Shown: piece by piece, positions 2,789-50,714 of the stretch
Layout: each line of letters begins with the position of its first letter
Position numbering within the stretch: the stretch's first letter is position 1
Assembly: GCA_001938485.1 (NCBI GenBank)
Contig: MQRK01233174.1
Span: 1 to 50,714 of the forward strand
DNA from: Girardia tigrina
Taxonomy: Eukaryota
Length of the DNA stretch: 50,714 bases
Reading direction: 5' to 3'
The notes under the pieces: model-generated
The model's database searches: none
The model's input: the letters and a program-made list of their open reading frames with translations, nothing else
What the model was told of the DNA's origin: nothing
Translations under genes and position numbers: made by a program

Positions 2789-2924
2789 ATGGAAATGACC
2801 TCATCCATCAAAGAATCACCGGAATTCGCATCGATTTGCTCGTTTATCGAATTATTTGGCGAGCAATTGAATGTGGCGCTGTCTCACAACCAGTTGGCGA
2901 AGTTCCTCGAGGTAACGGACGCCG
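2789..2924 (+). CDS. RSF1: RSF1 exon 1
   Basis: ATG at 2789; donor gtgagt at 2925; 61-nt intron ending tccag at 2985. Confidence 0.9.
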
Positions 2925-20700: not shown

Positions 20701-23700
20701 TGGATCCTATACGACAACCGGCGACGTTCAGCTCAGTGGTTGGATTTCAATGAGACTCCAAAGCCTTTCACAAAGCCAAAATTATACCAAAAAAATTCAT
20801 GGTAAATATTTGGTGGTCCGCACATGGTTTAATTCATTACAGCTTCCTAAACAAGGCGAAACAACAACAAATTGACAAAATGCAACAAGAACTACAAAAA
20901 AACGGCCGGCATAACTCAAAAGAAAGGGGCTAATTCTTATGCATAACAACGCTCGTCCAAATGTTGCAAGAAAGACCATACTGAAGTTAAACGAACTGGG
21001 ATATGAAACTTTGCCTCATCCACCGTACTCACCAGACCTTTCTCCTTCAGACTGTCACCTTTTCAAACATTTCAGCCAGTTCCTTCGCGAAAAATGCTTC
21101 AGAAACCAAGGAGATGCTGAAAGAGCCTTGGGCGACTTCATCGCCTCCAGATCTCCAGAATTTTAGGAACCTGGAATAAAAAAATTTGTTACCCGTCGGC
21201 AATAGTGTGCTCAATGTAATGGTTTTTATTTTGACTAATAAAGTTAATTCTAAAGAAAGTTATGTTCATTTAAAGTTGACGGTTAAAAAACGATATTTCT
21301 TTTGCATCAACCTAATATATCTTGATTTTTGGCCAACTTTTTTAATATATTCTGATCCAAATGAAACAAACGTCCTTGGAGTCGTGCTATTGGAAATGTC
21401 AGCTAAAATGCATTTAAAGCAGCTTTTTTGAATGTACATATGTTTTTTAGCGCAATTTCCATACTGACAATTGCGATTATTAATTGGTTATTTCTGTGTG
21501 GATGGATGGATGGATGTGTGTCCGCAGCTTTAAGTCGTATCTCCTCAATCCTTTCGTTCGGTCACAAAAAATTAATCATAGTCAAATACTGATATAAACG
21601 TTTTAATATTTGGGCACTGAATAACATAAGGAAATTGCACTTAAATTGTCACTAGACTTTTTATTAAGTTGTTTTACGTTTTAACGTGCTACGGTTGCGC
21701 CTTCCTGTGGAAATCAGTAATTATATGCGGTATTTCATTCATCTCAGAAGCCAAAAATCGCGTATCAGTGTCCGATATCCCACTCCGTTTACCTTTAGTA
21801 ACGTACCATTATTATCTTTGAAAAATTGTCCAATGACTATACGAGCATACACCATACCAAACAGTAACTTTTCGCAATTTAAAGGCAAGAATGTTTCGCA
21901 TGTTAAGATTGTATTAAACGCGATGAGACTTAGCAGCTGGCATTAATTTTTGTACCAATTGAATTTTTTATGGAAAAGCATACAAATCGACCTTGAGAAT
22001 TTCCTCAAAGTCGATGAATGCGTACCAAACTGCTGAGCACCGCGACGATATAAAATAAAACATCGGGTACCACAAAAATGTACCATTTATTTTGCTTTTT
22101 GTGGGTTCTATTGTGCGTTCTTGAGAAAATGATCCGATGTGCAGGATGACGAGCTTTTCAACCTTAGGGGTGTAAGTGCTAGTTAAAATTTATTATCGAG
22201 AATAGTGTATATCAGGTGTGACCAACGAGATTTATCACACTTACAAAATATAGGGTTGACTAAAAACATTTTTGAAACATCAGAATCAAAAATAGATTTT
22301 TATAATACTTACGTCACAAGAAAAATTTTCGAATTTGATAAATCTGGCATTAAAGTTAAAAGCGCTTTTGGTTCAACTTACACCTGCAAATCGTTCGAAA
22401 ATGAAAATGACTAAACACAAAACAAGGTCAAACATAACTGACGCTAACATTCACGTCCAATTACGATATGCAAATACTAAAATAGAAATCGATTTGCAAG
22501 GGCTAAGTTTAAGAATTGAGGAACAAATATCGTACTAGTAAAATAAATATGTTTTAATGACTTCATTTTTTATATTTATATATTTCTTTACTGTGTGCGT
22601 TAATTATTATTAAATTATCTGTGTTAATGTGTAGGAATAATAATAATAATAACTTATTGTGTTTCATTTTCTCACTCCAAAAATATCTATATCTTACAAT
22701 ATTGTAATTTTAAATGTGGCCCGCGGAGATATGATGATTTTCAAAAGTGGCCCCTAAGATCATTTAATTTGGCCACCTCTGGTGTATATATACCTCCCTA
22801 ACTTGAACACCTCACTAAGTTGAACATTTTTTTGTAACGGAAGGGTAATTCTCTTGTGTATAAATTATTTAGAAATTTCCAGTTAATTGTTAAAGTAAAA
22901 TATGTCTCAACAACAGTTTCTTTAATTTTTTATGTAATTAATATATAGGTTTAATATATAATTAATATATGGGCCTTTTCAATTTAATTTACAAGTAAAA
23001 CATCATTTCGTTCAAGAAGAGCTCTTCTATCAAAGAAAAACATAAACCTAGGTAACAAAGTTCCTCCAGTTTTAAATACCATCAAGAATGTGACAATGTG
23101 ACAATTTATGAAACAACCTTAAGTTAAGGAGTCGCATGTACTTAAAAAAACCACATAACTGGACACTTCAAGTTTATTGAATCCACTGACAAAAACGAAA
23201 AGAGCGGATCGGCCTAATTGCAGTAGAGTTTTAAGTTCTATGGAACAAAACATTGAACTTCACGATCAAGCCTTTTTATGAAAAACTAACAACACATCTC
23301 AAGCTTTGCAGAAAAAGACAAAACTTCGGTTCATTAAATGAACTATTTGACTTGATCAGCTTAGATGACATTACAATCAATTGATGACACAATCATTACT
23401 TGTTTATTTAAGCAGAGTTCAAACTCATTTTTTTCTTGAGACCTGACGATGACGGTTATACCTTCAAAATAAATTGTCGTAAAAAATAAAACTTATTGTC
23501 CAAATGGAGTCCTTTTTTCATTAAATTATTGATTTTTGTAATTAATAAATCTCATTCATTCATTAGTAAGGTGCTTTTAAAATTATTAAAACGTCTGTGA
23601 TTTTTGGGCATTATTTTAAGTATTAATAAGTCTCTTAGTTCAGTAGATATTTTATATTTGTTTAAAAATGAGTTTAAGAAGCTGTGAACTTCAGTTTCGT

Positions 23701-24679
23701 TTTTTTTTGTTATTAGAATATGCATTTTTTCGATGAGTGTCTTGATAAGGTGAAGTTTTCTATATTTTAAAAAGTAAAATAATAGTCACCAAAGTACCGT
23801 AGTTCTTTATTAGTTACTGACTGCATTAGTTATTTGCAGTTTATTTGTAATTCTCTCATAATTTTTTTCCAATTAACATAGTTTTTACACCAATTAAAAT
23901 CGTCTTGATAACTAGGGTTTTATTGTGCAACTAAATAGAGTAAACCAATATATTCTAATACTTACTGAAGTACCAACTGAGCTAAGAATTGCAAAAATTT
24001 TCTCCCCTAAAAATTAAAAAAATTCTTAAAAATTGATTGTTGTGAAATTAATGTGAAGAGAAAGCATAATTTGATAATTTGAAACAGAAATGCAACGAGA
24101 AATATAAATTATCGAAACATGCTTGGCGAAGAAGACGAGGATGATTCTGAATTAAATGAACAATCCCCGGAATATGAGTCGAGCGAGGATGATACCAAAC
24201 CTCCACCTGTTGTGTCTAGAAAAAAAGATCGACAGACCGGTCGATTGAAAAAACGAATAATATCAGATTCTGAATACGAAGAAGAGAATTCCAAATCCGA
24301 ATCGATTGCCGATTCTGGCTCAACAGAAAAATTAGAAACTGTCAAGAGAAAACAAAAATTCAAACCCGATCTCAACAGTGACTCTGACAGTGGAACACAA
24401 ACTCAATCTAAAATACCAAAAATCGATAATGACGATTCTATATCGAACGATTGTCCTGTAACTGGTAATCCTCCAGTCGCTCCAGTCATTACCAGTTTTC
24501 CTCCATTGAAACCCTCTATAAATTATCCTCCATTAGGTATCTTAAACCCGATGAGAGCCAAAGGAGATGAAGATAACGATATCGAAAACGAAGTAGAATC
24601 TGAAACAGAATGTGATTTGACGATTTGTCTGAACAATCAAGATTTGAGTAATAATCAGAATATTGCACCGAAACCGTAG
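2789..24679 (+). CDS. RSF1: Remodeling and spacing factor 1 (ISWI partner); join(2789..2924,2986..3371,8336..8553,16661..18445,24088..24679), 3117 nt, about 1038 aa
   Basis: N-terminus PEFASICSFIELFG...FDCQFDRNNKFKEKIN...LRSLPFGSDIHGCVYW matches the RSF1 DDT/WHIM pattern. PHD CQIC..LLCDECDLGHHAMCLRP..IPEGDWFCPKC. All four introns are GT-AG with consistent phases (1,0,2,2). Kozak-like CCACCATGG; stop TAG at 24677-24679. Confidence 0.92.
2986..3371 (+). CDS. RSF1: RSF1 exon 2 (DDT end, WHIM motifs)
   Basis: In frame with ORF 2991; donor AAG|gtgggc at 3372. Confidence 0.9.
3500..4710. repeat. Degenerate AT-rich minisatellite (ATTAAATTGAGAATTTT-type units)
   Basis: Motif recurs many times on both sides of the 3819-4403 insertion. 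Confidence 0.75.
3819..4403. mobile_element. MITE-like insertion with imperfect ~32-bp terminal inverted repeats
   Basis: ggaacgaatgtttttctaccccccatatatta versus taatatgtggggggcagtataacagtagtacc; interrupts the minisatellite; internal ~70-bp direct repeat. Confidence 0.55.
4957..5430 (+). mobile_element. DINE-1/HINE-like (Helentron-associated) non-autonomous element, gap in middle
   Basis: Subterminal IR agcgcaattt...aaattgcgct, short internal IR, GTGT/GGAT microsatellite, T-run flanks; 3 copies in the window. Confidence 0.7.
7600..8130 (-). mobile_element. Highly decayed PIF/Harbinger-like transposase remnant
   Basis: Minus-strand peptide TRGF...QTFTSEEASHVRTMQNRIHV resembles the DRGF...EE..R..R.HVER motif; many stops. 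Confidence 0.35.
8336..8553 (+). CDS. RSF1: RSF1 exon 3
   Basis: Acceptor gcag at 8335; IVAESIEGLHKLRTEL continues the WHIM region; donor gtgagt at 8554 (phase 2). Confidence 0.8.
9113..10559 (+). mobile_element. mariner (DD34D) element; transposase from 9303, centre in gap
   Basis: TIRs ttaggttggtcgaaaaataatggcggtttt / aaaaccgccattatttttcgaccaacctaa; TA TSD; HDNARPH and YSPDLSPPD motifs. Confidence 0.95.
10565..11199 (-). pseudogene. ATMIN/ASCIZ-like C2H2 zinc-finger pseudogene nested antisense in RSF1 intron 3
   Basis: From ATG 11199: YSCSIC*TDVK/IKANLKGH*IKTH, then CPVENCKYHISSGKGISKFSILK*HYNWVHVPHAFICSSCNKSF and a downstream ETQI. Three stops and two compensating frameshifts. Confidence 0.6.
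11560..11704. repeat. (TA)n microsatellite spanning a gap
   Basis: Directly visible. Confidence 0.95.
13700..14205 (-). mobile_element. LTR-retrotransposon gag (capsid-like) remnant with PBS-like TGGTAGCGA
   Basis: WLKKFD...LLALLD...LQKRY...TFIAGVP..L gag-like pattern; TGG-starting motif just upstream of ATG near 14176; frameshift. Confidence 0.55.
14239..15492 (-). mobile_element. mariner element, mostly in gap (CDS about 15302 to 14317)
   Basis: TIRs ttaggttgttcgatatgaaacgggtcaaa at both ends; TA TSD; about 1.25 kb; C-terminus VDNMGGYFD*. Confidence 0.9.
15770..16238. mobile_element. Second DINE-1/HINE-like family
   Basis: IR ttacaagcttttat (15792) and ataaaagcttgtaa (about 15916 and 16222); CAAA/GATA microsatellite; small hairpin at 15774-15790. 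Confidence 0.45.
16661..18445 (+). CDS. RSF1: RSF1 exon 4 (AT-hook-like KKGRPRK, PHD finger, acidic and basic tracts)
   Basis: Acceptor tttatttcag at 16660; 592-aa open frame; donor gtgagt at 18446. Confidence 0.92.
19069..19310. mobile_element. piggyBac-type MITE
   Basis: TTAA|CCCTAATGGAGCC ... GGCCCCATTTGGG|TTAA. Confidence 0.75.
19943..21315 (+). mobile_element. Full-length defective mariner (DD34D); transposase pseudogene about 20245-21240
   Basis: TIRs ttatgttgatgcaaaagaaat / atttcttttgcatcaacctaa; TA TSD; WLPHEL, TYDEKW, HNNARP (catalytic D to N), YSPDLSPSD; frameshifts and stops. Confidence 0.95.
20020..20146. mobile_element. pogo/Tigger-like MITE nested in the mariner 5' UTR
   Basis: TA|CAGTAGAACCTGGCTATTCCGGCA ... 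TGCCGGATTAGACAGGTTCAACTG|TA. Confidence 0.8.
21444..21675 (+). mobile_element. Internally deleted copy of the DINE-1/HINE-like element
   Basis: Both ends match 4957-5430; (GGAT)3 expansion; 5' and 3' halves joined near 21547. Confidence 0.75.
22213..22781 (+). mobile_element. Non-autonomous hAT (Buster/SPIN-like) element
   Basis: Perfect 8-bp TSD GTGTATAT (22205-22212 and 22782-22789); TIRs CAGGTGTGACCAA / TTGGCCACCTCTG; hATC remnant FGSTYTC..SKMK..RSNITD. Confidence 0.9.
24088..24679 (+). CDS. RSF1: RSF1 terminal exon 5
   Basis: Acceptor aacag at 24087; splicing gives RPKRNATRNINYRNM in frame with ORF 24119; TAG stop. Confidence 0.82.
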
Positions 24680-28329: not shown

Positions 28330-30202
28330 GTTGTTAGTTGTTTGAATACGAAATATTGATTGAGTATATAAAATACATATAACACAATGCAACACAGCCC
28401 CCCGATCTGGAGATTCAAACGTATATGAAAAAAATTATAAATAGATAAAAAAATAATTAAGATTTTGTTATTAAGTTTAATCTTATGAACTAATTAATCT
28501 GTTTTTACCTTTGCTGGTTTTTATGCTTTTCCATTTACGTGGATGTGAAGGTGCTTGTCTAAATTCTGTGAAATGTGTAGTTTTTTCATTATCTGATGAA
28601 AGTTTTTCAGAATTTTTAAATTAGTAATCCGAGTTGTGAATTGATTTATCATAATTATTTTTATTTGAAGGTATTTCCTCACTGATATTGTAGTTGTGTG
28701 GAGATAATAAATCTAATGTGATTGATTTTGGTATATTATTCTGTGTGTTGTCATCAGTAATGAAGAAAGCTGGTTTGACGTTATTCAAATGAACTATTTC
28801 TTTTAAATCGTTTTTTAGAATTTTTGCGTTGTGTATAGATCTCGATGATTTTAAATAGACCGATATATGTTGGTTGTACTCCATGTGCTGAATGATTTTT
28901 TAACCAAAGAAATTTGGCTTAAAAGAGTGTTTTGGGGATAAAATCTTTAAAATTGTTTAATATTCTGCAAAAATTATCTTTCTGTAATTTTTCAATTTTT
29001 TTTCGCGTGCTGTAAGTATTGTTTGATCAGATGGAGTTGAGTTGCAGTTTGTTAATTCGGCTATGAAACGTATTTGTGAACCGAAAAGAGCTTGACTTGG
29101 TATGGTTGATGCGGAGGTGTTAGGCGTATTGCGCCAACCTAAAAGTACGTATGGCATTGAATTTAGCCAACCTGAATTGCCGTCTGCCAAAATTTTTAAA
29201 GATGCTTTGAAAGTTCGGTGGAATCTTTCTAAAGCGCCGTTTGATTGAGGATGATATGCTGAAGTGTGTATATGTGTTGTTTCAAATCGCATGTTCAGTG
29301 ATTTGAAAATTTCCGCCTCGAATTGCCTTCCTCGATCTGATATTAGATATTTTGGAGCTCCGTATTTGCAAATCAAAGTTGAAAGGAATGTCTGTGATAT
29401 TTTTTCTGCGTCTATTTGTTTTAAAAGAGCTGCCTCTGGCCATCTGGTAGATCTATCGAGCATGGTTAGGATGTATTGATAACCTCTATCTGGTAGCAGT
29501 GGGCCGACTAAATCGATGTGTTAATGTTTCAAAGCGTGAACTAGTAGGAAAGTGATATAGTGGAGGGTTGATTTTCTTAAATGTTTTAAATTTCTGGCAC
29601 TGAATGCATTGTGCTATCCATAGTTTGACGACTTTTCTCATGTTTGGCCATATGACTCTTGTCTGGAGTAATTTGTATGTGTTGGAACTGCCAGGGTGAT
29701 GTAAACTATGAATGTGGTCGAAAGCTTCTTTGCGTAATTATTTTCCAAGGATTGGACGAAGTGTACCAGCTAAGTTAGTATCATAAGCAATTCCTTCAAT
29801 ATATGAGATATCGTTAAAGTGAGTAAGATCTTCAGCTGATGGCTTAAATTCTGACAATTTTTCGGTTGTGAATATAGGTCGAAACATAACTGTGGCTACT
29901 GAGCGAGATAAAAAAATCAGCGGTTTCTTTATTTTTACCTGGTAAATAGGATAAATCAAAAGAAAATTCTGAAAGATAAGAAATCTGTCGTTCTTGTCGT
30001 GGAGACGGATTTTTCATAATCATCATATTAACTAAAGGTTTATGGTCAGTTCTAATTTTGAATCTTATGGAGATTAAAAAATGTTTGAAATGTTTTACTG
30101 CTAAAAAAATTGCTAAAAGTTCTCTGTCTAAAGTTGAGTATCGTTGTTCTGTTGCTGAAAATTTTGTTGAAAAGAATTCTATAGGTTGGTGTTCGCCGTT
30201 AA
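28330..30202 (-). mobile_element. Ty3/Gypsy pol remnant (RNase H, integrase) with PPT and start of 3' LTR
   Basis: EQRYSTLDRELLAI..TDHKPL; SDRGRQF..SAYHPQSNGALERFHR; PPT GGGGGGC|TG at 28403-28395. Confidence 0.9.
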
Positions 30203-30429
30203 CTAGTTGATAGAGTACAGCGCTTGCGGCTGTAGTAGATGCGTCTGTCGTGAAATATAATGTATTATCTTTATTTGGAAAACTGAGTGTTTTAATGTTT
30301 TGTAAGATATTTTTGTAATATATTTTTTTGATATTTTTTTATATATTTTTGTAAGAATCGCAGTTGTAAGTGCAAAGTTAAAATTGTTGCACGTGATCTT
30401 GTAATTGTTGGAAATAAGATTCCTCAACA

Positions 30430-31274
30430 CTCAAACGAAGGAAACTTAAGCTACGCTCTGGCAAGACGAGCTGTTAGAGAAATGAAACGAAGGCTCGAGA
30501 ATACTCTTGCTACACCAGGTGTAGCACAAGCTTCAGTCACTTCAACTCTCGCTGATTATGTTTTGCACGCATTACCAAAGAAAACTACTTTATCAAGAGC
30601 ACTAAGGAAATACAGACAAAAATAGAACGCCCACGGAGACACAGCACTGCCTTCGATTCCAAACGATCGCAATTTTGAGATGCCAGAACGCTTTAGTCAC
30701 TTTGTGCAGTTTGATTCGGGTCCTGGTGTTGATCGTATTATTATACTTGAATGTCACGAGCTCATCGACGGCTTGGCGCGTGAGTCTGTGTGGTTATCAG
30801 ATGTTACATTCAAGACGGTGCCAGACTTATTTTTCCAGCTTTACACTATTCATTTTCAATTGTGAAAATTTTCAATTGTCAATCCAGCTGCGTTATACTG
30901 CCTTTTTCCAAATAAAACACGTGCCACGTACGACCGATTACTCCAGGAAGTAGTGCGTCTCATTCCGTGGGCAGCACCAAGAATTATTCTCAACGATTTT
31001 GAAATGGCAGTAATGGGTGAATTTCAAGAAAATTTTCCTGATGCTCGTACTTCAGGCTGCTATTTCCATCTTTCCCAAAGCGTAATACGAAAGGTATATG
31101 AGTTTGGACTGAAAGTGGAATATGAAACTAAAGAAGATATACGAATCGCTGTTCGTTGTCTTGCCGCCCTATCTCATGTACCAGTAAAGGACGTTAAAGA
31201 GGCCTTCGAACTATTATCAGACTCGTTGCCAGCAATTAATAACATTGATGAGGTGCTGACATACTTCGAGCATA
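30430..31274 (+). mobile_element. Mutator/MULE transposase remnant
   Basis: WLSDVTFKTVPDLFFQLYTIH, DFEMA, GCYFHLSQSVIRK; stops and frameshift. Confidence 0.88.
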
Positions 31275-31722
31275 ATGGGTGCGCAGGCAAAATCTGGACA
31301 AATTTTAAACCACCATTGTGAAAAGAGGAAATAAAATTTCCAGAAGCTGTTTATATTTTATTGAAGGACAAGATGTAAAGAACAAAAAATGTTTACAGAA
31401 TAATTGAAAGTGGTCCGTCTCTATACACAGCACGAAGGCGTTTCTTAATCCCTTTGGAGTCCTTCCGCAACGTGGACTGATCCATTGTTTTCAACATTTT
31501 CTTAATCCGTTGCTGTAGTTGAGGGATTGTTTGAGCCTCTCAGCCTCCCTCATATACTTTCGCCTTTAGAGCGTCCTAAAAGTTTTCGATGGGGTGGCAG
31601 TGTCGGACGATGGGACGATTACACTCCTTGTCAACTAAAGGGATGTTGAGATGATGGAGAAGTTTGAGAGTGCTGTTGGCATAATGTGCAGAAGCCAGGT
31701 CCGACCAGAAGAGAATTTCCGG
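31275..31722 (-). mobile_element. IS630-Tc1-mariner DD37E-type transposase 3' fragment
   Basis: FWSDLASAHYA...HPIENF*DALKAKVYEGG; 37 residues between D and E. Confidence 0.8.
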
Positions 31723-36024: not shown

Positions 36025-36767
36025 GTTTTTTATTTGTCAAAACATGTTTCGCCATTACAGCATCATCAGTTGTGAAGTAAATTTCAAATTACAAGTCATT
36101 TATATGGCACATTGACTATTACACAATTAATCTTTTTTTTTAATTAATATTAAAAGATTTTAATATGATTGGATAATTCACTTTGAACATTTAAGCATGG
36201 TTTTAAATGCTTTATTAGTAATGCCTCAGTGACTATCCTCTCATGATGTGTCAAAATTTTTTTTCAAAACTGTAAATTCAGTTTCATAGTTAACTTTATC
36301 TCTATTTCTGTGATCTAGAATCGAGATATTCCTACTCAATTGGGTGTGTTCAGCTATTCTAGTGCGGAGATGACGATTTTTTCTCCAATGTACAAGGATT
36401 CACACTTGTGACATTTAAATTGATATACTAGATTAGCTTGGACACCCGATGGAGTTTTTGATTTATTTGAGAAATATCTCGATAGTTTATTAGTTATAAA
36501 GATCACCCGCAAATTAAAACCCCAAGGAACCTTTTTCATTAGGCCTTTCCTCAAATCAGACGCACCTTCAGAAAATGGTAATTTTAAATTTATTGTTTTT
36601 ATTACATTACTACTACTATCATTATTTATAATTTTTTCATTTTTATTATTAGATTTTTCGCGAATTGAGTCAATTGTATTTTTTATCAAATTATTTAAAT
36701 AATTTTTATTGTACCCATTATTTTCTAACCTAATTTTAAGATCAACAATACCCTTATCTACACCACG
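36025..36767 (-). mobile_element. 5'-truncated Penelope-like retroelement (RT tail, GIY-YIG endonuclease, 3' UTR)
   Basis: LENNGYNKNYL...NLVYQFKCHKCESLYIGE; frameshifts; hammerhead motif and AATAAA downstream. Confidence 0.85.
36037..36073 (-). ncRNA. Minimal type I hammerhead ribozyme
   Basis: Minus strand reads CAA-CTGATGA-T-GCT-GTAAT-GGC-GAAA-CATGT-T-TTG: intact core, short stem II, palindromic ACATGT helix III, CAA/TTG stem I. Confidence 0.75.
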
Positions 36768-37199
36768 ATTAAATAATTTGATGTCGTTTACATTTCAAAC
36801 CTTTCAATTCATTTTTATTGGGTTCCTATGTTTATTCACCATTCAACTGTATTATGATATTGCTAAAATGTATTGATATAAATAATCGATTTTAAGGACG
36901 TAACGGGAACACATAATATATTCTTTGATCGTGCATTAAACACGAAACAAGGTTTTCCAGTGTTTTCGACTCACATCCTCGTCAACAGTGTCGTGAAAAA
37001 AGACGAGCAAATGATCATGAGCGGCTTGAATGATGAAGATACCAAGAATAACCAGAATCTGGCCAAAGATGAGAGATTATTCGATAGGATCGTCCGAAGT
37101 ATTGCACCGAGTATTTACGGTCACGAGAATATAAAACGGGCAATCGCTCTTGATCTTTTCGGTGGAGTGTCAAAGAGTGAGTGGAATTTAGTTCAGTAA

Positions 37200-37319
<120 letters not shown>

Positions 37320-37961
37320 TAACTTACACCGCGTTGCGTCTTTTGTACCGGTAAAGGGGCTAGTGTAGTCGGTCTCACGGCTTACGTTACCAGAAATACC
37401 ACCACAAAAGAATGGACTTTGGAAGCCGGGGCTATCGTGCTTGCCGATAGAGGTGTTTGTATGACGTTTGTTTGTTTGACGGTATCGATGTGACTGTTCG
37501 GTATTTGGAGTTAATGATTCGATTGTCTGAAGCTCATGCTAAATTTCATTTACGGGAACATGTAAATAATGACGATATCAATATGGCCATTCGGATTTCT
37601 CTGGAATCTTTCATTTCCACAGAGAAATACAGTGTTATGAAGCAGCTAGAAAATGTAATAGTTATTCAATTCTTCTGAATCGCTTTTTGGGAAATAATTC
37701 AAGTTATGATCTTCTTGTATTCAAATAATCATTTACAAATAATCGCGAATTGATGGAATAAGAATATTTAATGTTGCTTGAATCTAAAATTTGCCAAATT
37801 TTAATAATATTTAATTCTCATGAATTTTAAATATTTCATTTTGTACCTCGATTTGATACTTGTAAATCGAATTTTAAATTTAGCATTATGTAAATATCGA
37901 TCAATGCAATGACAATTGACTAATTCCATATATGTAGTGAAAACAATATCGATTCTAATAA

Positions 37962-38803: not shown

Positions 38804-39167
38804 GTTCTATTGTGTAATTGAAATTAATTGTAATTAGTGAAGTAAATGTAATTAGAAGTAATTGAAAAATAATATTTTACTTAATAATCCATTTTAGAAA
38901 TTCCATAATTATTTGAATTACAAAAAGAATGGTCAGGAATTATTGATGTTTGTGTTAAATCAATTGCTCCATGACAAGTTGGCTGTTTAAAGAGCGCGTT
39001 CTGGAACAACAACTGTTCAAATTCCTGAAAAAACGCTATTGGAAAAGGCTATACGAATGAAAATCAAATCGATCAAGAGCTTTCTGGACAGTGATTTTTT
39101 GAGACAACTTGGTTTTTATTATGATGCTGGAAAGAACATCATAGGTTACAACTTTATAACCGGATCG

Positions 39168-39768
39168 TAGATTTAGATGTTTATAGATTTAGATGCTTAT
39201 AGATTTAGATGATTATAGATTTAGATGCTTATAGATTTAGATGCTTATAGATTTAGATTTGTGTAATAAATGTTCAATTTTTAACTTTTCTTAATGTTTT
39301 GAGAAAATCACGAGTCAGAAGACGGTCAATATGATTAATCGTGAGTTAGAAACTTTAGGCTTATATTATAGATTTAGATGCTTATAGATTTAGATGCTTA
39401 TAGATTTAGATGTTTATAGATTTAGATGCTTATAGATTTAGATGCTTATAGATTTAGATGTTTATAGATTTAGATGCTTATAGATTTAGATGCTTATAGA
39501 TTTAGATGCTTATAGATTTAGATGCTTATAAATTTAGATGCTTATAGATTTAAATACTTGTGTTTAAATGTGTTCTTCCAAACAAATAGTTTTTATTTCA
39601 GGTATAAGGTCAAGAAATACTTAATTCCTAAATTTAATGAATGTGTCACATTTTAAATGGGGACGTATAAGGATCTTTTGAAGTCACCAAGTATAAATTT
39701 AAACAAATATTATATATATGCTTATAGATTAAGATGCTTATAGATTTAGATTTGTGCAATAAATGTTT
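39168..39768 (+). repeat. 16-bp minisatellite (TAGATTTAGATGCTTA)n with one ~121-bp unit
   Basis: Arrays at about 39168-39258, 39369-39552 and 39718-39750. Confidence 0.93.
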
Positions 39769-39988
39769 AATTATAAAAATATTTTAAATTTTATTTAAAA
39801 TTTTCTAAATTTAATTAAAAAATTCTTATTTTAATTTGAAGCAATTCGCTATTCTTCCGTGCTATATGTGACAGATAAATGAAGCTCGATGTCACAACCC
39901 GCCAGAAAGACACCTTATTCGAACAACTAATACTATTATCGCCCAGACCACAGAATCGGCCGATATCGGCACACTCAAGCATCAGTAC

Positions 39989-40346
39989 ATCTGCACTTCG
40001 TTCCTCGGTCCCGCTCGCTTGTCGAGACAGAAATAATAGTCCGAGAACTCTTTCGAGCAATTCTTCTTCATTTTCCTGAAAAACTCGATGCCACAGGCCG
40101 TCACCTCTTTACCCTCGCGAATGCACTCCGCGGGGTCATGGAACGACTCTTGATAGCACAGCATGAATTCCTTAAAACGCGGTNAAATTTCCGATCGCGT
40201 CGCACAATTCGCCATACTTTGCATTTCTCGTCGCAATACTTGCCTAGATACAGCGAGCCTGCCAACAGCGGACCCCCAGTCAAGTGCAGCTCGGGCACTT
40301 CCAGTTCTTCCAGTGACGGTAGTTTCGCTTCTTGATCAACAGACAT
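39989..40346 (-). pseudogene. NDUFA8: NDUFA8 (complex I 19-kDa CX9C subunit) 5' fragment: exons 40346..40218 and 40170..39989; later exons not found
   Basis: LPSLEELEVPEL...YLGKYCDEKCK|EFMLC...DPAECIREGKEVTACGIEFFRKMKKNC..EF.DY..CLD; 47-nt GT-AG intron; frame undisrupted. Confidence 0.8.
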
Positions 40347-40763
40347 GTTCAATTAATGTGCTGTTTATATACGTTAATTTAAACAAATGACACATTTGAC
40401 TGGCTTAAAAGTGAGAATTTTTTATTAATATTTCTTTTATTAATTATTTGTTTTAGAAGAAATTTTGCTTTTTTAAAACTGTTATCAATTCAATTTAATT
40501 ATAATTATCTTGTGTAATCATACGAAATTATATAATAATTAAATATTGTTACTTAACTGCCAAGTTAAAAAAACAAACAAATCTTTTAATCCACGTTTTA
40601 CTCCATTATAATTGTAATTAATTCTCATTTAGTGATGGATAAAAGTGTTCGGGCAGTTTTGTACAGAACTTTTTTTAATATAAAAATATAATTTATTGAA
40701 ACTTTATTTAATAGTAAATTCTAAAATAAAATTGATAAAACGGTATTGTTCCGCTCGATTCTC

Positions 40764-41310
40764 AGATGCTTATTGATTTAGATGCTTATAGATTTAGAGG
40801 CTTATAGATTTAGATGCATATAGATTTAGATTTGTGCAATAAATGTTCAATTTTTAACTTTTCTTATGTTTTGAGAAAATCACGAGTCAGAAGACGGTCA
40901 ATATGATGAATCGCGAGTTAGAAACTTTAGGCTTATATTATAGATTTAGATTTGTGTAATAAATGTTCAATTTTTAACTTTTCTTAATGTTTTGAGAAAA
41001 TCACGAGTCAGAAGACTGTCAATATGATGAATCGTGAGTTAGAAACTTTAGGCTTATATTATAGATTTAGATGCTTATAGATTTAGATTTGTGTAATAAA
41101 TGTTCAATTTTTAACTTTTCTTAATGTTTTGAGAAAATCACGAGTCAGAAGACGGTCAATATGATGAATCCGTGAGTTAGAAACTTTAGGCTTATATTAT
41201 AGATTTAGATTTGTGTAATAAATGTTCAATTTTTAACTTTTCTTAATGTTTTGAGAAAATCACGAGTCAGAAGACTGTCAATATGATGAATCGTGAGTAA
41301 GAAACTTTAG
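40764..41310 (+). repeat. 16-bp units plus four tandem ~121-bp units
   Basis: AATAAATGTTCAAT recurs at 40838, 40958, 41095 and 41217. Confidence 0.93.
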
Positions 41311-41603
41311 GAGTTAGTTTTCTCGGGCTCAGAGAGCGTTCCGACAAGTTAGACCCTTACATCTTTCTTCTTTGCGAGGCTGACCTCAACATAGTAATAC
41401 TATATGTGAAATCCTTATTTATCTATTCTTATTTCAGCGTTTACCATTTGGGAAATATAGTAAAATCAGATAAGGGTATGAAAAAATTTGGTAATTTAAA
41501 ATAAGATAACGTTCACAATAGAAAATATTAAATAACAGTACAGTAGAAACAGCGATTGGAAGAAAAAAAATAATGCAGGATACCTTGTTTATTATGCTGT
41601 GGC

Positions 41604-42252
41604 TGTATATATAAAATATTGTTATTTTTTATTCTTTTCGTAATTTTTTTATTTTTATTTTTGTGGATTTCTTAAATAATACGATGTTATTATTTACAAT
41701 GTATATTATGTATTTATTTAAAAAGATATTATATTTAAATTAAATATATATTTATAAGTTAGGTTAGCGCTTTTCTTATTTTTATATTCTTGTTTTTACG
41801 CGTATTTCTATCTACGCGTCCGTATAGCAAGCCCAAGCATTTCTACTATCTTCTATCTGTGACTGCTACGCATTTCTGTAATTGTTACTTGTGTACGCAT
41901 TATTGCTACACATTTCGGTTGCGTATAAAAGAACCGATACAATAAGAATTTCTTGGTCAATTAAACCAATATTTCAGATAAAATTCCGTTTAACGTCGGA
42001 CAGAGTAAATCAGATTTCCGAAGAAGAATTAATTTATTGCCCAGTTGTTGTTAATTCAATTATTTTTATCTCGCGGAGAATAATTAAACTATTTAAGTAA
42101 GAAGGAAGAATTAATTTATTGTCCCAGTCGTTGTTAATTCAATTATTTTTATCACGGGGAGAATAATTAAACTATTTTCGTAAGAAGTTCCCCTTGTTAT
42201 TGTATTTTAAAGGATTCTATAATTTTGCAATCGGTGAGCATCGATTATAACA
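41604..42252 (+). mobile_element. LTR copy (duplicate of the 3' LTR together with its flank)
   Basis: TG...CA; homologous to 48910-49482; extra ~83-bp internal duplication; preceded by a PPT remnant; no PBS follows. Confidence 0.85.
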
Positions 42253-43057
42253 TCTGTATATTTATGACTATTTGTGACTATCTTAAATTCATACATTACA
42301 TACGTAGGTTATTTCTTTATATATAAATTTTCTTAAAGAAAAGTTTTGTAATTTGTGAATATTTAAATATATTTTATTACAAGAATCGTGTTGTCTTTCT
42401 TGGTTAATTAAAATATTAATTACAAAATCAGTTATTCTAATATCAACACGCACTAAAATCTATTAAATACAAACTCAATTAATTACAAATAGCTAGAAAA
42501 TCTAATTTAATTTTAAATTGTATATTCCTTTGTTGATCTCGAAAGCGGGTTGAAGACACAATTATTTAAATCGAACCCCTTCATTTCAACAATTAATTTC
42601 GACGTATCAACCGTCATCATCATTTAATATTTATTTAAAATTTATAATATACAATCATAATTAAATAAAATTAATTTTTTAATCTTTATAAATTGCATTT
42701 CTTTCTTCATTGACAATTTGGACGCTAATTTTCTGTACCCGTTTTCTATTTGTATGATAACTGGTAAGGTTAAAACTAACAAGAAGCAAAACCGTCCCGT
42801 AACGAAAGAAATTGTTATTGGTACGTACTAGGTATCAATCCAGGAAACAATATAACTTTATGCTCATGAAAAACAGTGATAATCAGAAAGAGTTACCTGT
42901 TAACAAAATCATTAAATAATTTGATGTCGTTTACATTTCAAAACTTTCAATTCATTTTTATTGGGTTCTATGTTTATTCATCATTCAACTGTATTAATGA
43001 TATTGCTATAAATAATGATACTGATAAAAAGTATTGATATAACCAATCCATTTTAAG

Positions 43058-43179
43058 GAAGTAAGGGGAACATATTATATATTCTTTGATCGTGCATTAA
43101 ACACGAAACAAGGTTTTCCAGTGTTTTCGACTCACATCCTCGTCAACAGTGTGGTGAAAAAAGATGAGCAAATGATCAT
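43058..43179 (+). pseudogene. MCM2: Second MCM2 exon fragment fused to Gypsy gag
   Basis: Near-identical to 36897-37018 (FDRALNTKQGFPVFSTHILVNSVVKKDEQMI). Confidence 0.9.
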
Positions 43180-46100
43180 TATCAAGAAAGATAATATAAA
43201 TACAATTAATAAATTAATTAAAACACTCAGAAGTGTAATAGTTGTCGACACAGAATTAACAAAGCATTACACACGATCATTCAGAAATCGCACGCAAAGA
43301 TGAAATGAAAATATTGTAGAATACATATTCGCATTAAGAGAATTAGCCGATAAGGCATTTGGGGAAAATACCTAAGTTGACAATTTAATACTTGATCAAT
43401 TTCAATGTGATGTGCACGAGCATATAAAAAATGCTTTAGCAATAGTCGATTTTGTTAATCTGAATGATTTAGTACAATATGCTAGGCGTATTTAAGCCAG
43501 CTATGTGAGTAGGGAAAAGCCGAACCTGGAATTGCACGCTTTTAACCCCTCACAAAATAATAAAAAATATAATAGTGATAGAAATTCACCAAAAGATACA
43601 GTAAACCAACGAGGGTTTAATGTACGACGTGGATTTGTTCGAGGAAACAAATCTACGAACGACTATCAGAATGATAGCTATAAAAACAACTATCAGAACG
43701 ATAATAAAAATAATAATAAAAGAAATAATGATAAGTACAAGGGTAATAATTATAGAGAAAACAGTAGAAACAATTATCAAAATAATAATAGAAGTTATCA
43801 AGAAAATAATAATAGTAGAAGTGATAATAGTCATTACAAAAATAATAACAATAATTCGAGAACCTTTCGAGGACGAGGAAATAACAGAGGAAACATTAGG
43901 GGTAGAATTTTTAACAATGACACAAGCAGGAATAATTATCAAAATAATGATCGAGGAGATCAGAAAAATAATTATGAGCAAAGGACTTATCAAAGCCCTC
44001 AATGAGAAAAGGTAAATAATGAAGGTGAGATACAATGTTACATTTGCAAAAAATATGGGCATACTAGCAGATCTTGTCACAAAAATAAAGATAATTTTGC
44101 ACAGAATAAGCCAATTTATGGCATTGAACGAGATGAATTTGAAAAATTAAAAGAAGACATTAAGAAATTAAAAATGAATAAATCCAGAAATGATAATGTT
44201 AGAAATGATAATAGGGATGTTAGAAAGAAACATATTTGACAATTTGAGAGATAAAGTAGATGTCTATGAGCATATGGATAAACAATCAAGAATGTTACCC
44301 AAACGACCAAACAGCCCATATGGTCTATATGAAGGATCAAAGGAAACACTAAAACAAATTAAAAACGACCAGATCTTCTCATTTAGTCGAAATAGTGAAT
44401 GTGGAGTAATCGGTACATCGGATAATTATAGTTGTTTATTATGGAATAGACTGACAGCAATGATTACGGTCAATAAGAAAAGAATTATTGCATTAATAGA
44501 TACAGAAATGAGATACAAAAATGAGAATCAACAATCTCACAGATGAACAAAAAATGAGGATGAGGAAACCTCAATCAAATTTGATATCGATGTCGAACCA
44601 TCATTTAGAAATGAAAGGACTAATAACTCTAATAATAAAAGTCGGAGATAGAATAATAAAAAATGATTTTAATGTAATTGAAGATTTCGGACATGAATGT
44701 TTGTTGGGAATCGATTTCTTGAGAAAATTACATGGATAAGCATTAGATTTGCGAACATGTCAATTACTGAACATCAAAAATAATTTACGAATTCCAAAGT
44801 ATGGACAAGTTCGAGTGACAAAGAATATCAAAATACCACCATGGAGTGAGATATTCTTGTACGAAAATGCGATTTTGGAAGAACATACAAACGAAGATTT
44901 TATTTATTTCAAAAAATGGAAAAGAACCAAATTTGGAAATCGCTGCATGTATAGTCAGATCAAAAGATAGGAGAATACCTATCATAATGACAAACTTCGA
45001 TCACAAAAAGAAAGTATTGTGAACAGGCATGTTGTTGGGTCAAGTAGAAAAAGCAAAAAAAGAAATAGATGTAATTGAGCAAGAAAAGGAAGGTATCAAT
45101 ACTTATAAAGCCATACTCAAAGATAATGACAATCTCAACGAAAATCAAAAAGAGAACTTGAATATATCTTGTATGAGTTTAATGATATCATGGCAGCGCA
45201 TGAATTTATCTTGGGAATTGTGACAATGGTAGAACATGCAATCATTACATCTACTGATCAACCAATCACTCAAAGAGCATATCCAATGCCTCCAAAAATA
45301 AAAGATGAGATCAAAAGACAAATCAAACAATTACAAAAAGAAAATATAGTACGAAAAAGTACAGCACCATGGTCATCACCAATTATATCAGTTAAAAAGA
45401 AAAATGACGAAATTCGAATGTGCATCGATTATCGTGCACTCAATTCGGTAACAAAAAGGGATACATATCCATTACCAAGGCTGCAGGAAATGTTTGACAA
45501 GTTGGGAGGATGTAAATATTTTACGAAATTAGACGCAAATAAAGGATTCTATCAGATCAAAATCAGAGATCAAGATATTGAAAAAACCGTGTTTGCAGAT
45601 GGGGCAGGATTATACGAATTCTGTAAAATACCATTTGGTTGAACCAACGCTCCAGCAACCTTTCAACGAATGATGAATATAGTATTGATGGATACACCAT
45701 ATGCTATAGTATATATGGACGATATACTAATTGTGTCAAAAACATGAACAGAACATAAAAAGAATGTAAGAGATGTGTTCAGAAAACTTAGAAATGCTGG
45801 TATAAGAATTAAACCGACAAAATGTTGCTTCGGAGTGTCGGAAGTTTTATTTTTATGGCATCATATTTCAGCAAAAGGAGTTATGCCAGATCCAGAAAAA
45901 GTTATCCAAGTAAAAGATTTTCCAGTCCCAAAAACAATCGACAAGTATAAAGTTTCCTAGGATTAGCAGGTTATTAGAGATGATCCCAAAAGGATTATTC
46001 GAAAATTGCAATCCCACTAACTAATCTAAGAAAAATACCAAAAGATGTACCAAAAAAAGATATTAATAAATATTTTAAATGGATGAATGAATGCCAAAAA

Positions 46101-48119
46101 GCGTTTGAAAAATTGAAGGAAAATTTGATAAGTTTTCCAGTATTAAGATATCTAGATTTTACAAAACCATTCATCCTGATGACAAACACCAGTGGAGGAG
46201 CCCTAGGAGCAGTTTTGGGGCAAGAAAATGAAAACGGAAAAGATTATGTAATATCATATGTGAGTCGTGTGCTAAAAGGTGCAGAGACCAGATATTCTAC
46301 AATAGAACTAGAATGTTTAGCTATTGCTTTTGCAGTACAACATTTTAGACAATATTTATATGGCGCTGAAATTATATTGAAAATAGATCACAAGCCATTG
46401 GAAAGTTTGATGAAAAATAAGAATGCCTCCAGCAGATTGATTGGATGGGCAATGAAGTTGTAAGATATGGAAGTCAAAATTAAATACCGGAAAGGAAAGG
46501 CTAACGCAAATGCAGATGCCTTATCGAGAATTCCAATGGAAGAAATTCAAATAGTCTTATTCACCATTAATCAAAATGATTGAAATTGCTAATCTAAATA
46601 CAGAGATGAAAATAAATATTCAAGAATTACAAGATACATATATTCATCTTAAAGAATTAAGAGAAACTGACTGAAAATAAAGTAAAACAGTACAAAATTT
46701 GTAATGGTGTTTTAAAGTATATTGATAACGAAAAAGAATTGATAGTGATTCCAGAAAATCATGAAGAAAATATCATGATGCAGTACCATGATGGAGCATT
46801 AGGCGGACATTTATAATTTCGTAAAACTATGAGTCGAATTAAAGAAAAATATTATTGGGAAGACATGAGAAAAGATATCACAGAATGGATCAATTCATGT
46901 CAAATAAGTGCTACGATGAAAAATATAGGAGCAAGGACGAAAGTTCCTTTATGCCCTATGCCAGTAACCACTGCACCAATGGAAAGATGTGTAATGGATG
47001 TAATTGGACCCTTACCAGAATCGGTAAGTGGGAATAAATTTATATTATTGTTTATGGATTATTTTACCAAATTTGCCTAAGCATTTGCGATGACAAATCA
47101 GAAGGCTGAAACTATTGCCGAAATATTTGTTTAAAAGATTATTTTCAAATACGGCCCGCCAAGAAAAATTCTAACAGACAGAGGTACAAATTTCTTGAGT
47201 GATACAATTAAAAGAGTAAACGATTTATTCGGTATATTAAAATTAAATACTACAGGATTTCACCCACAAACAGACGGATTAGTGGAAAGATTCAACGGAA
47301 AATTATTGAATCGATTATCAATACCCGTACATCTAAAACAAGCAGATTGGGATATGTTTATTTCATCAGCCTTGTATTTATACATAACAATACAATATCC
47401 GAAACAACAGGATACAAACTGTCATATCTAATGTATCTCAGAGATATCAGTTTGCCGATAGATTTGGTTTCGTACAGCCAACATCTCAGTTAATGGATGA
47501 ACCAGATTATGTCACAATAATGACAGAGAGATTGGCTACAATTTACAAGAAAGTCAGATTACAAATCAAATATTCTCAGGAGTAATATAAAGAACAATAT
47601 GACAAAAATGCGAAACCTCATGATTTTAAAGTTGGAGATAAAGTTAGAATATGGATGCCAACCACGAAAAAAGGATTTTCACTCAAATTATCAAGGCCTT
47701 ATAAAGAACCTTATGAGGTAAGAGTCACTCCCACAAATTTATTCATTATTAAGAATAAAAATAGTGATCCAATTGTAGTACATGTCAATATATGTAAAAA
47801 AGCAGAGATTTAACCAACCAAGAGGTGTAATTTACGATCAAATACACAGTCAGAAATTTGTGTAAGTGAATTAGAAAATCAATTCGAAGAGAACCGGAGC
47901 AAACTACCACCAGAACCAGTAAAACATAGATCCTCAAACCGAGTTAGAACTGCGTCAATTTTGATCCCAAATACTCAAGGGAAAGAAAGTGTAACGTTTC
48001 TACACGAGGATAATGTTTCAAATACAGAATATTTCCCAAATGAAGATACAGCCAAACAATTCTTTCATTTTTACAATGAATTAGCTTCGATGCAGGGAGA
48101 ATATCCTGTACAAGCAACT

Positions 48120-48520
48120 ATCGTGGATAATAATAATATTGCATTTCAATATGCTAAAGGGAATATTCAAAATGTGGATTTATTCAGAAAAGTTAAATTA
48201 TATCGACCTGATTTATTTCTGACAAAAAAATGATCAAGGAAATACTCCGATACAAGAAGCAATTCAACGAGGAAAATTTCACAAAGTGATGAAATTATTA
48301 CCTGCAAGATCAGAAGATCTTCATAAATTAGCAAACTTACAGTCCGAAAATGGACAAACTGCTTTAATGATGGCAATATTTCATAGGGCACCTTTTAATA
48401 CAGCAATAAAAATATTAATCGCATATTCAGATTTGAATATAAATGATAATGATTGGAGGATAGCATATCATTATAGTGTGGAGAAAGGGAACCGCAGAAT
48501 ACAAGATATTTTGGATGAAA
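48120..48520 (+). pseudogene. Ankyrin-repeat coding region (about 4 repeats) inside the Gypsy element, one +1 frameshift
   Basis: DNNNIAFQYAKGN; NDQGNTPIQEAIQRGKFHKVMKLL; SENGQTALMMA; DLNINDNDWRIAYHYSVEKGNRRIQDIL. Confidence 0.8.
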
Positions 48521-48909
48521 TAGAAAACAAGAAAATTAATAAATCAGAAGAACGACTCAATTTGATCAGAGAAAGAATCTCCAGATATCAGCAGGATGAA
48601 AAATTGGCAAGAATAAATAACATACCTCAAAATAATAGAACATTTGTTTTATCATCTGAAAAAAGGAAAAGAAGTGTATATTGATAATGAACCGAAAAAT
48701 TGTTCAATAATCCGAAGTTACCGTGAAAGGAAACCAAATGCGAAATCGGGAAGACGAAATGATAAAATTAGACAGAAGGAGGAGGCCAAAAAGGACATAT
48801 TACAAGAAATTAAACCAAGTTCAAAAACTAAAACCGATGAGTTGTACAAAAAGACAGATAGAAGAAGTGTACCAACACTCGAATTGACCCCTCCCACAAA
48901 TGTTGGGGC

Positions 48910-49482
48910 TGTAAATATAAAAAATTGTTATTTTTTATTCTTTTCGTAATTTTATTTTATTTTTATTTTTTATTTGTGTGGATTTCCTAAATAATATGAT
49001 GTTATTATTTACAATGTATATTATATATTTATTTAAAAAGATATTATATTTAAATTAAATATATATTTATAAGTTAGGTTAACGCATTTCTTATTTTTCT
49101 ATTCTTGTTTTTACGCGTATTTCTAACTACGCGTCTGTACAGCAAGCGCACGCATTTCTAGTATCTTCTATCTGTGACTGCTACGTAGTTCTGTAATTGT
49201 TACTTGTGTACGCATTATTGCTACGCATTTCGGTTGCGAATAAAAGAACCGATACAATAAGAATTTCTTGATCAATTAAACCAATATTTCAGATAAAATT
49301 CCGTTTAACGTCGGACAGAGTAAATCAGATTTCCGAAGAAGAATTAAATTATTGCCCAGTCGTTGTTAATTCAATTATTTTTATCTCGGGGAGAATAATT
49401 AAACTATTTTCGTAAGAAGTTCCCCCTGCTATTGTATTTTAAAGGATTCTATATTTCCAATCGGTGAGCATCGATTATAACA
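48910..49482 (+). mobile_element. 3' LTR of the Gypsy element
   Basis: GGGGC|TGTAAAT ... ATAACA; same GGGGC|TG junction as the other Gypsy at 28396. Confidence 0.8.
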
Positions 49483-50714
49483 TCTGTATATTTATTATGA
49501 CATAAAATTCAAATATTTAAAATTAATATCAATATTAATATTTCCATTTTAATAAAATAATTATACCTATTTATCATACAAAATCATTTGATAGTCTGCA
49601 AACGAAGCTTTGTGACTATCCTAAATTCATACATGACATACGTAGGTTATTTCTTTATATATAAATTTTCTTAAAGAAGTTTTGTAATTTGTGAATATTT
49701 AAATATATTTTATTACAAGAATCGTGTTGTCTTTCTTGGTTAATTAAAATATTAATTACAAAATCAGTTATTCTAATATCAACACACACAAATCTATTAA
49801 ATACAAACTCAATTAATTACAAATAGCTAGAAGATCTAATTTAATTTTAAATTGTATATTCCTTTGTTGATCTCGAAAGCGGGTTGAAGACACAATTATT
49901 TAAATCGAACCCCTTCATTTCAACAATTAATTTCGACGTATCAACCGTCATCATCATTTAATATTTATTTAAAATGTATAATTCACAATCATAATTAAAT
50001 AAATTTAATTTTTTAATCTTTATAAATTGTACTTCTTTCTTCATTGACAATTTGGACGCTAATTTTTTGTACCCGTTTTCTATTTGTATGATAACTGGTA
50101 CGGTTAAATCTAACAAGAAGCAAAACCGTCCCATAACGAAAGAAATTGTTGTTGGTATAGGCGTACTAGGTCTATATCAATCCAGGAAGCAATATAACTT
50201 TATGCTCATGAAAAACAGTGATAATCAGAAAGAAAGTTACCTGTTAACAAAATCATTAAATAATTTGATGTCGTTTACATTTCAAAACTTTCAATTCATT
50301 TTTATTGGGTTCCTATGTTTATTCATTCAACTGTAATAATGATATTGCTATAAATAATGATACTTGTAAAAATAGTTGATCCCGTGATAATGATGGATCA
50401 ACTATTTTTACTTACAAATAAATAAAAGTAAGTAAATAAAATAAAGTTAAACCACTAGTAAAAGTTTAATATCGAAAAAAACCCAAGTAAAAAAAAAAAC
50501 AAAAAAAAATTCACCTTTGTATAATAATAAATTTATTAGGATAAAAAAACTCCAACAGGCAAACACGGTAAGTCAGTCATTATTTTAATTGTTTAATCCA
50601 TATCAGTTTATTGATTTCCTAATTAGTTCTTTCATTTAATAAAGTCATTTGATAATTATCAACCATTTTCTTATGCAATTGTAACTTCTCTTCGGTTGTC
50701 ATTTTTCTGGATAC

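Follow-up and report, generated by a model that had tools for sequence, protein, structure and literature searches.

The element and its setting

The window, by which we mean the whole 50,714-nt contig MQRK01233174.1 of Girardia tigrina that was analysed, is AT-rich, animal-like DNA. Between 41594 and 50380 it contains two long direct repeats framing the remnants of a retrotransposon polyprotein, including an ankyrin (ANK) module. The features recognised there are given below (strand in brackets; P numbers denote peptide or protein sequences).

41594-43038 (+): 5' long direct repeat, LTR-like and some 1.44 kb long, containing an 83-bp duplication; LTR ends approximate; 96.7% identical to 48900-50380
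42911-43179 (+): piece of a host MCM-like gene (intron end plus partial exon), adjoining mid-gag; 88% identical to 36768-37018
43181-44236 (+): gag remnant with an Asn/Arg-rich region and one CCHC knuckle (44036-44077); 4 in-frame stops; tblastn matches to P0159, P0165 and P0166 (E 6e-10 to 5e-9)
44451-44904 (+): aspartic protease remnant, split across frames; tblastn match over 44524-44904, N-terminal part recognised by eye
45139-45939 (+): reverse transcriptase (RT), YMDD at 45712, 2 stops; RVT_1 E 2.5e-10
45912-46547 (+): RNase H, 4 stops; RT_RNaseH_2 E 2.5e-35
46688-47810 (+): integrase (H2C2, core and C-terminal domain) with stops and frame changes; Integrase_H2C2 E 8.6e-10
47811-47813 (+): in-frame TAA, a decay mutation of the window copy; three relatives are open here
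47814-48120 (+): R-x-N-L-R-like motif and linker of about 95 aa; 63/96 identical to P0002
48120-48534 (+): ankyrin module, a degenerate N-terminal repeat plus three canonical ones, with a frame break at about 48219-48230; Ank_2; collinear with P0007, P0164 and P0159
48535-48886 (+): capping helix and charged tail, with a frame break at about 48660-48668; stops where P0002 enters a hydrophobic segment
48900-50380 (+): 3' long direct repeat, LTR-like, entered by the tail frame and lacking a preceding polypurine tract (PPT)

Gag comes first and the order PR-RT-RH-IN follows, between long direct terminal repeats (41594-43038 and 48900-50380) that are 96.7% identical. With high confidence, the element is a decayed, internally reduced Ty3/Gypsy retrotransposon whose clade encodes modular polyproteins in a single ORF, arranged much as in Burro. 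Gag and pol together contain at least 15 stops (15 in the five stretches counted) and several frame changes; thus the copy is dead and unable to make any of the products proposed below. Its internal region is about 5.7 kb long.

The copy is also rearranged, and its ends look rearranged. The repeats align over 1352 columns at 96.7% identity (K2P 0.033), no coding remnants were found within either of them, and the region upstream of the 5' repeat yields only one marginal 15-aa match. TG...CA ends, a TSD, a PBS or a PPT were not identified at the element ends, nor were tRNA genes within the window. The first-pass annotation, made from the letters of the window, had the charged tail running up to the PPT; this does not hold, since 15-nt windows starting at 48870-48895 contain 5-9 purines and no polypurine tract is seen before the 3' repeat. 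The long repeats may be a tandem rearrangement, or include an assembly error, rather than being simple LTRs. Between 41594-43020 and 48900-50366 there are 22 transitions and 21 transversions, which is unusually even. An imperfect inverted repeat, C-rich/G-rich, was noticed by eye at 48887-48909 (+), across the start of the 3' repeat at the expected PPT site.

The 5' portion of gag is absent, and the MCM-like piece stands directly before mid-gag. Its counterpart, 36768-37018, lies in a decayed MCM P-loop domain locus. This MCM-like gene (36768-37660, +) is itself decayed, has an apparent intron and matches the MCM P-loop at E 1.8e-42; we take it to resemble MCM2. Each long repeat has a copy of the first 110 bp of the gene at its 3' end, and 250 bp of the gene are found again before gag. 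Downstream, the gag knuckle is separated from the protease by only about 460 nt, compared with 1,018-1,797 aa in 10 of 13 env-bearing relatives (those including a knuckle), and thus the window copy lacks env; an env profile finds nothing anywhere in the window. A candidate remnant of the env-protease junction at 44178-44495 is not significant, as 78 of 991 shuffles score as high. The missing env may reflect either a deletion in this copy or an env-less lineage.

Elsewhere in the window, an NDUFA8-like host gene with a short intron occupies 39982-40352 (-) and is GC-rich relative to its surroundings. Its exon best matches 8b9z and 8esw, presumably from Drosophila, at 62.5 bits, followed by the next group at about 50. 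On either side of the gene (39159-39790 and 40748-41347) lie a 16-bp tandem repeat and another repeat measuring about 121-137 bp. Exons of a PHD-finger chromatin protein (PHD E 1.9e-9), which we presume to be RSF1-like, are found at 2717-3467, 16611-18449 and 24083-24679 (+), split by transposon debris. Further mobile remnants are scattered over 9303-10457, 13626-14150, 20167-20805, 28957-30338, 30332-31321 and 36354-36794; they include a mariner-like element (HTH_48), a second Gypsy RH/IN on the minus strand and a MULE, together with a GIY-YIG/Penelope-like piece and a gag-like piece recognised by eye only.

The ankyrin module and its close relatives

The unbroken ORF 48223-48681 matches Pfam Ank_2 at E 1.3e-8 (35.7 bits against a cut-off of 27.3), and also matches Ank_4 and Ank; the ankyrin call is therefore independent of joining frames. 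On the read-through peptide P0001, in which X marks both breaks, the Ank_2 match improves to E 1.7e-12. The domain is real and far beyond chance, and the HMM matches bear out the ankyrin assignment of the first-pass annotation. Its frame analysis is likewise sound in the main: the VVHVN tail of the integrase, TAA 47811, the KRCNLRS motif (47820-47840) and ORF 47961 lie in one common frame, and the frame shifts at the A7 run 48224-48230. Two details required correction. VVHVN begins at 47775 (47775-47789), 47781 being its H codon, and the joining of two ORFs at the A7 run overlooked the further break at about 48660-48668 inside the tail.

Canonical ankyrin motifs begin at 48238, 48352 and 48454. 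The structural model of the ANK region of P0002, a close relative, has stacked helix-turn-helix repeats (VIA Z 14.0, rmsd 2.5, 127 aligned) and comprises a degenerate first repeat, three canonical ones and a capping helix (pLDDT 85.5). The 'about four repeats' counted at first thus correspond to three canonical repeats and one degenerate N-terminal helical repeat. Behind them, D, E, K and R make up 47% of the residues of the tail at 48668-48886. Chromo has no match in the window tail or in P0002-P0004. Two lipocalin matches of the linker (E 0.07 and 0.0015) fall below the cut-off and were treated as noise.

A search with P0001 gave three matches among 1092 candidates, all JGI records: P0002 (586 aa; 74% identical to P0001), P0003 (77%) and P0004 (45%). 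In each, the integrase C-terminal domain is followed by the linker and ANK in one stop-free frame; the P0003 sequence stops within the first canonical repeat. The first-pass annotation had proposed a Pol-ANK product of the active ancestor, by fusion or readthrough. Integrase and ANK share one frame in 3/3 close relatives and the codon at 47811 is open in all three; thus ANK is a family-level polyprotein fusion, neither a readthrough product nor a one-off insertion. The linker is confined to the close family and has no match in distant clade members. Between the window and P0002, ANK repeats 2-3 are kept at 44/52 positions versus 63/96 for the linker, whereas the ANK N-cap (20/31) is not better kept than the linker.

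The match of P0002 to the window ends at 48886. Beyond it, P0002 runs on with a hydrophobic segment (residues 506-524) and a further 60 or so residues, for which the window offers no significant match. Since P0002 continues in this way, the window copy has probably lost a C-terminal part, and the charged tail, at first taken for the end of the product, is probably not the natural one. Such a loss would also explain the absent PPT. The last 63 aa of P0002 score 1.2 bits against the profile of the FN3-like membrane tail described below, a value reached by 358 of 996 shuffles; for the close family, only its position points to a tail of this kind. A search of 2075 candidates of 638-2000 aa for a full-length member of the close family gave no match, which is weak evidence, and two scans of prokaryotic genome contigs for the DNA of the relatives likewise gave nothing.

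The wider clade and the placement of the module

Wider relatives were collected by phmmer with the integrase tail and by an integrase search of proteins of 1570-4997 aa (best 120 of 199 matches). Among the 120 integrase matches listed, 18 polyproteins at least 50% identical form a distinct set, and relatives reach 4,057 aa. In the RT tree, built from 52 of 128 available rows, the window sequence joins this clade at 98/97 on a long branch (1.42); its outgroups were drawn from the two protein searches, and named reference elements were left out. In the integrase tree of 29 hand-picked rows, the window joins the clade at 97/95. Both trees place it near the clade base. Thirteen of the 18 polyproteins carry Monjiviricetes_fusion between gag and protease, and three carry Ank_2, which is found in 0/102 of the other matches listed. 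One clade polyprotein, P0028, bears the label of a hypothetical protein from a Flavobacteriaceae MAG and is most likely eukaryotic contamination.

At least two hydrophobic segments follow the integrase in 19 of 25 rows. The ectodomain between them in P0158 is predicted with a confident fold (pLDDT 89) and resembles tandem FN3 domains, such as those of Tie2 and neogenin (E from 1.5e-7, with TMq of only 0.3-0.5). A signal, a tandem FN3-like ectodomain and a transmembrane anchor end most clade polyproteins, e.g. P0157-P0164. P0158 also has an additional, similar FN3-like domain near its N-terminus. The order in P0159 is gag, Ubl, env, ANK and pol, its ubiquitin/SUMO-like domain being matched at E 4.4e-5; P0157 shows this domain weakly. 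Two to three or more aspartic-protease-like domains are present in P0007, P0008, P0012, P0154-P0156, P0160 and P0162-P0164, some of the extra ones sitting after the integrase.

Distant members of the clade have a related ANK module as well, at two positions of the polyprotein. In P0007 and P0164 it lies after the integrase, 350-500 aa behind it and past extra protease-like domains; in P0159 it lies between env and the protease/RT. A profile of these three modules matches that of the window at E 1e-18, collinear from position 9, and the first two ANK motifs are 38 residues apart in all five modules examined, the canonical spacing being 33. The modules differ in length, with about four repeats in the window versus about seven in P0007, P0164 and P0159. 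Independent captures of ANK may nevertheless have occurred, given that identity between the window and these distant modules is only 22-28% and that a profile of the N-cap only gave no significant match (E 0.17-0.5). ANK bearers are found at three places in the RT and integrase trees, and a single clade of them is rejected (AU p 7e-77), the group having been defined for this test by Pfam labels after a quick tree had been viewed.

Known systems and the proposed role of the module

Whether the family had been described was left open by the first-pass annotation. For Gypsy elements in general, ANK is already known from Burro/GYPSM1. Burro1/GYPSM1 and Burro-2 to -4 are giant Gypsy-like LTR elements of Schmidtea mediterranea (cited in PMC6431247). 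According to PMC6431247, Burro1/GYPSM1 contains ankyrin repeats, an env in frame that is related to the fusion proteins of mononegaviruses, and BIR, BCL2-like, MATH and Ubl domains; the ORF is of about 4,900 aa, the element exceeds 30 kb and its study is called difficult. The window element shares with Burro the Gypsy PR-RT-RH-IN order, one long polyprotein and ankyrin repeats, and its clade adds the in-frame env between gag and protease (13/18) and the ubiquitin/SUMO-like domain. It differs in size, with an internal region of 5.7 kb versus up to 25 kb in Burro, and the window copy has no env and only one knuckle. Burro's dUTPase, BIR, BCL2 and MATH are absent from the Pfam rows of the clade members scanned; likewise, no BIR, BCL2-like, MATH, Ubl or dUTPase was seen in the window pieces scanned. 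The comparison is with the published description of Burro rather than with a named Burro sequence, and size and env are unlike those of Burro; thus we call the element Burro-like and not a Burro.

Three features appear to be new here: a compact family that joins integrase and ANK, a module that is shuffled between positions, and the FN3-like membrane tail, which is unmentioned in the available part of PMC6431247. A literature search by title and abstract, with Repbase, Dfam and GyDB outside its scope, found no ANK directly behind a Gypsy integrase; by title and abstract start, it found neither an FN3-like membrane tail of a Gypsy polyprotein nor a link between the ankyrins of retrotransposons and those of the planarian secretory cell nidovirus (PSCNV). 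Other LTR elements are known to have captured accessory ORFs, namely the ORF3s of bdelloids (PMC5408684) and AlkB in orchids (PMC9289625). As in these, accessory domains of the window's clade are gained, lost and shared modularly; there, however, they are separate ORFs, and ankyrin is unmentioned in the available parts of both papers.

Ankyrin folds are generic, and searches of the PDB, NCBIfam and Atlas for an ANK donor returned generic ankyrins only, the PDB matches being of this kind by sequence and by fold. IkB-alpha and Bcl-3 are low among the PDB sequence matches, at 45-51 bits versus 86 for Kidins220. The top BFVD match of the P0002 model is the polyprotein of PSCNV (E 1.5e-4, TMq 0.70, rmsd 2.6 A; 142 columns, 22% identity), one of two BFVD matches at E <=0.001, with the next close behind at E 2.6e-4. 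The PSCNV polyprotein has three divergent ankyrin repeats near a transmembrane segment, closest to planarian Rel homology domain proteins and proposed to mimic IkB (PMC6211748). In this arrangement the two polyproteins are alike. PSCNV is, however, an RNA virus, identity is only 22% and the comparison is by structure alone; we regard the resemblance as a weak lead. A nidovirus ANK link, if confirmed by sequence, would bear on that virus's source of the domain.

On balance, we slightly favour a mechanism in which ANK is a host modulator. Since the module need not touch the integrase, an accessory for host interaction is likelier than a tether for integration. The protease of the element would cut ANK away from the integrase, and a downstream internal signal segment would leave it on the cytosolic side, either free or tethered to a membrane. 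As an accessory that binds proteins there, it would manipulate a pathway of the host, innate-immune or apoptosis signalling being the most plausible, with ANK as an IkB-like decoy; between lineages it would be gained, lost and moved by recombination. A role against host defence is plausible. To our knowledge, few LTR retrotransposons have accessory domains for host interaction. Should ANK be a mobile immune or apoptosis modulator, these elements would resemble complex viruses with swappable accessory genes, and the three-to-four-repeat domain of an intact relative would be a far easier handle than the 4,900-aa Burro polyprotein. In a bolder and, taken as a whole, unlikely scenario, a widespread, env-bearing, retrovirus-like clade would shuffle one ANK module of shared ancestry with that of PSCNV, a retroelement and an RNA virus with hosts in common would have exchanged an IkB-like decoy, and an undescribed FN3-like surface protein would stand behind the integrase.

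Among the alternatives to a host modulator, integration-site tethering, which the first-pass annotation had raised, survives best, and we consider it rather unlikely. Here ANK would remain on the integrase and steer integration via chromatin or a nuclear protein, as a chromodomain does. In the window, P0002, P0003 and P0004, only about 95 aa indeed separate the integrase C-terminal domain from the in-frame ANK, and chromodomains, which target integration (PMC9289625), fill the same slot in P0108 and P0143. Chromoviruses therefore offer a likeness in having an additional in-frame binding domain at the integrase C-terminus. The domain is a different one, however; P0108 and P0143, with Chromo after the integrase, fall outside the window's clade, and the ANK module is not fixed to the integrase, a related one preceding protease and RT in P0159, which weakens the proposal. 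The distance from the integrase in P0007 and P0164, with protease-like domains in between, also argues against tethering, and the hydrophobic segment of P0002 would bind an uncut integrase to the membrane.

That same neighbourhood of membrane segments would fit a structural particle adaptor, linking Pol or the core to the membrane-anchored FN3-like protein or env during assembly or budding. In every long case ANK adjoins a segment that enters the membrane: the signal, which follows ANK in P0007, P0164 and P0002, or the env anchor, which precedes it in P0159. A core assembly part should, however, be less dispensable: Ank_2 is missing in 15 of 18 clade members, most of which have env or the tail, and P0161, the sister of P0159 in both trees, has no ANK match. 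We find such an adaptor decidedly improbable. The patchy distribution could instead mean that ANK is a captured host fragment, a functionless passenger in an insertion-tolerant polyprotein, and its shortening from about seven to about four repeats would agree with this. Against it stand the open frame and intact fold maintained across relatives only 22-50% identical, and the better conservation of the repeats relative to the linker; we hold a passenger to be more doubtful still. Programmed readthrough at 47811 or a one-off insertion in this copy, suggested by the window sequence itself only, is rejected with near certainty by the three open, ANK-bearing relatives, readthrough being unneeded in a copy full of other stops.

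Additional domains in frame behind the integrase were also encountered in other Gypsy proteins of the searches. P0112 and P0178 have a rhabdovirus-type glycoprotein domain at this place, and P0023 a long, unassigned membrane protein.
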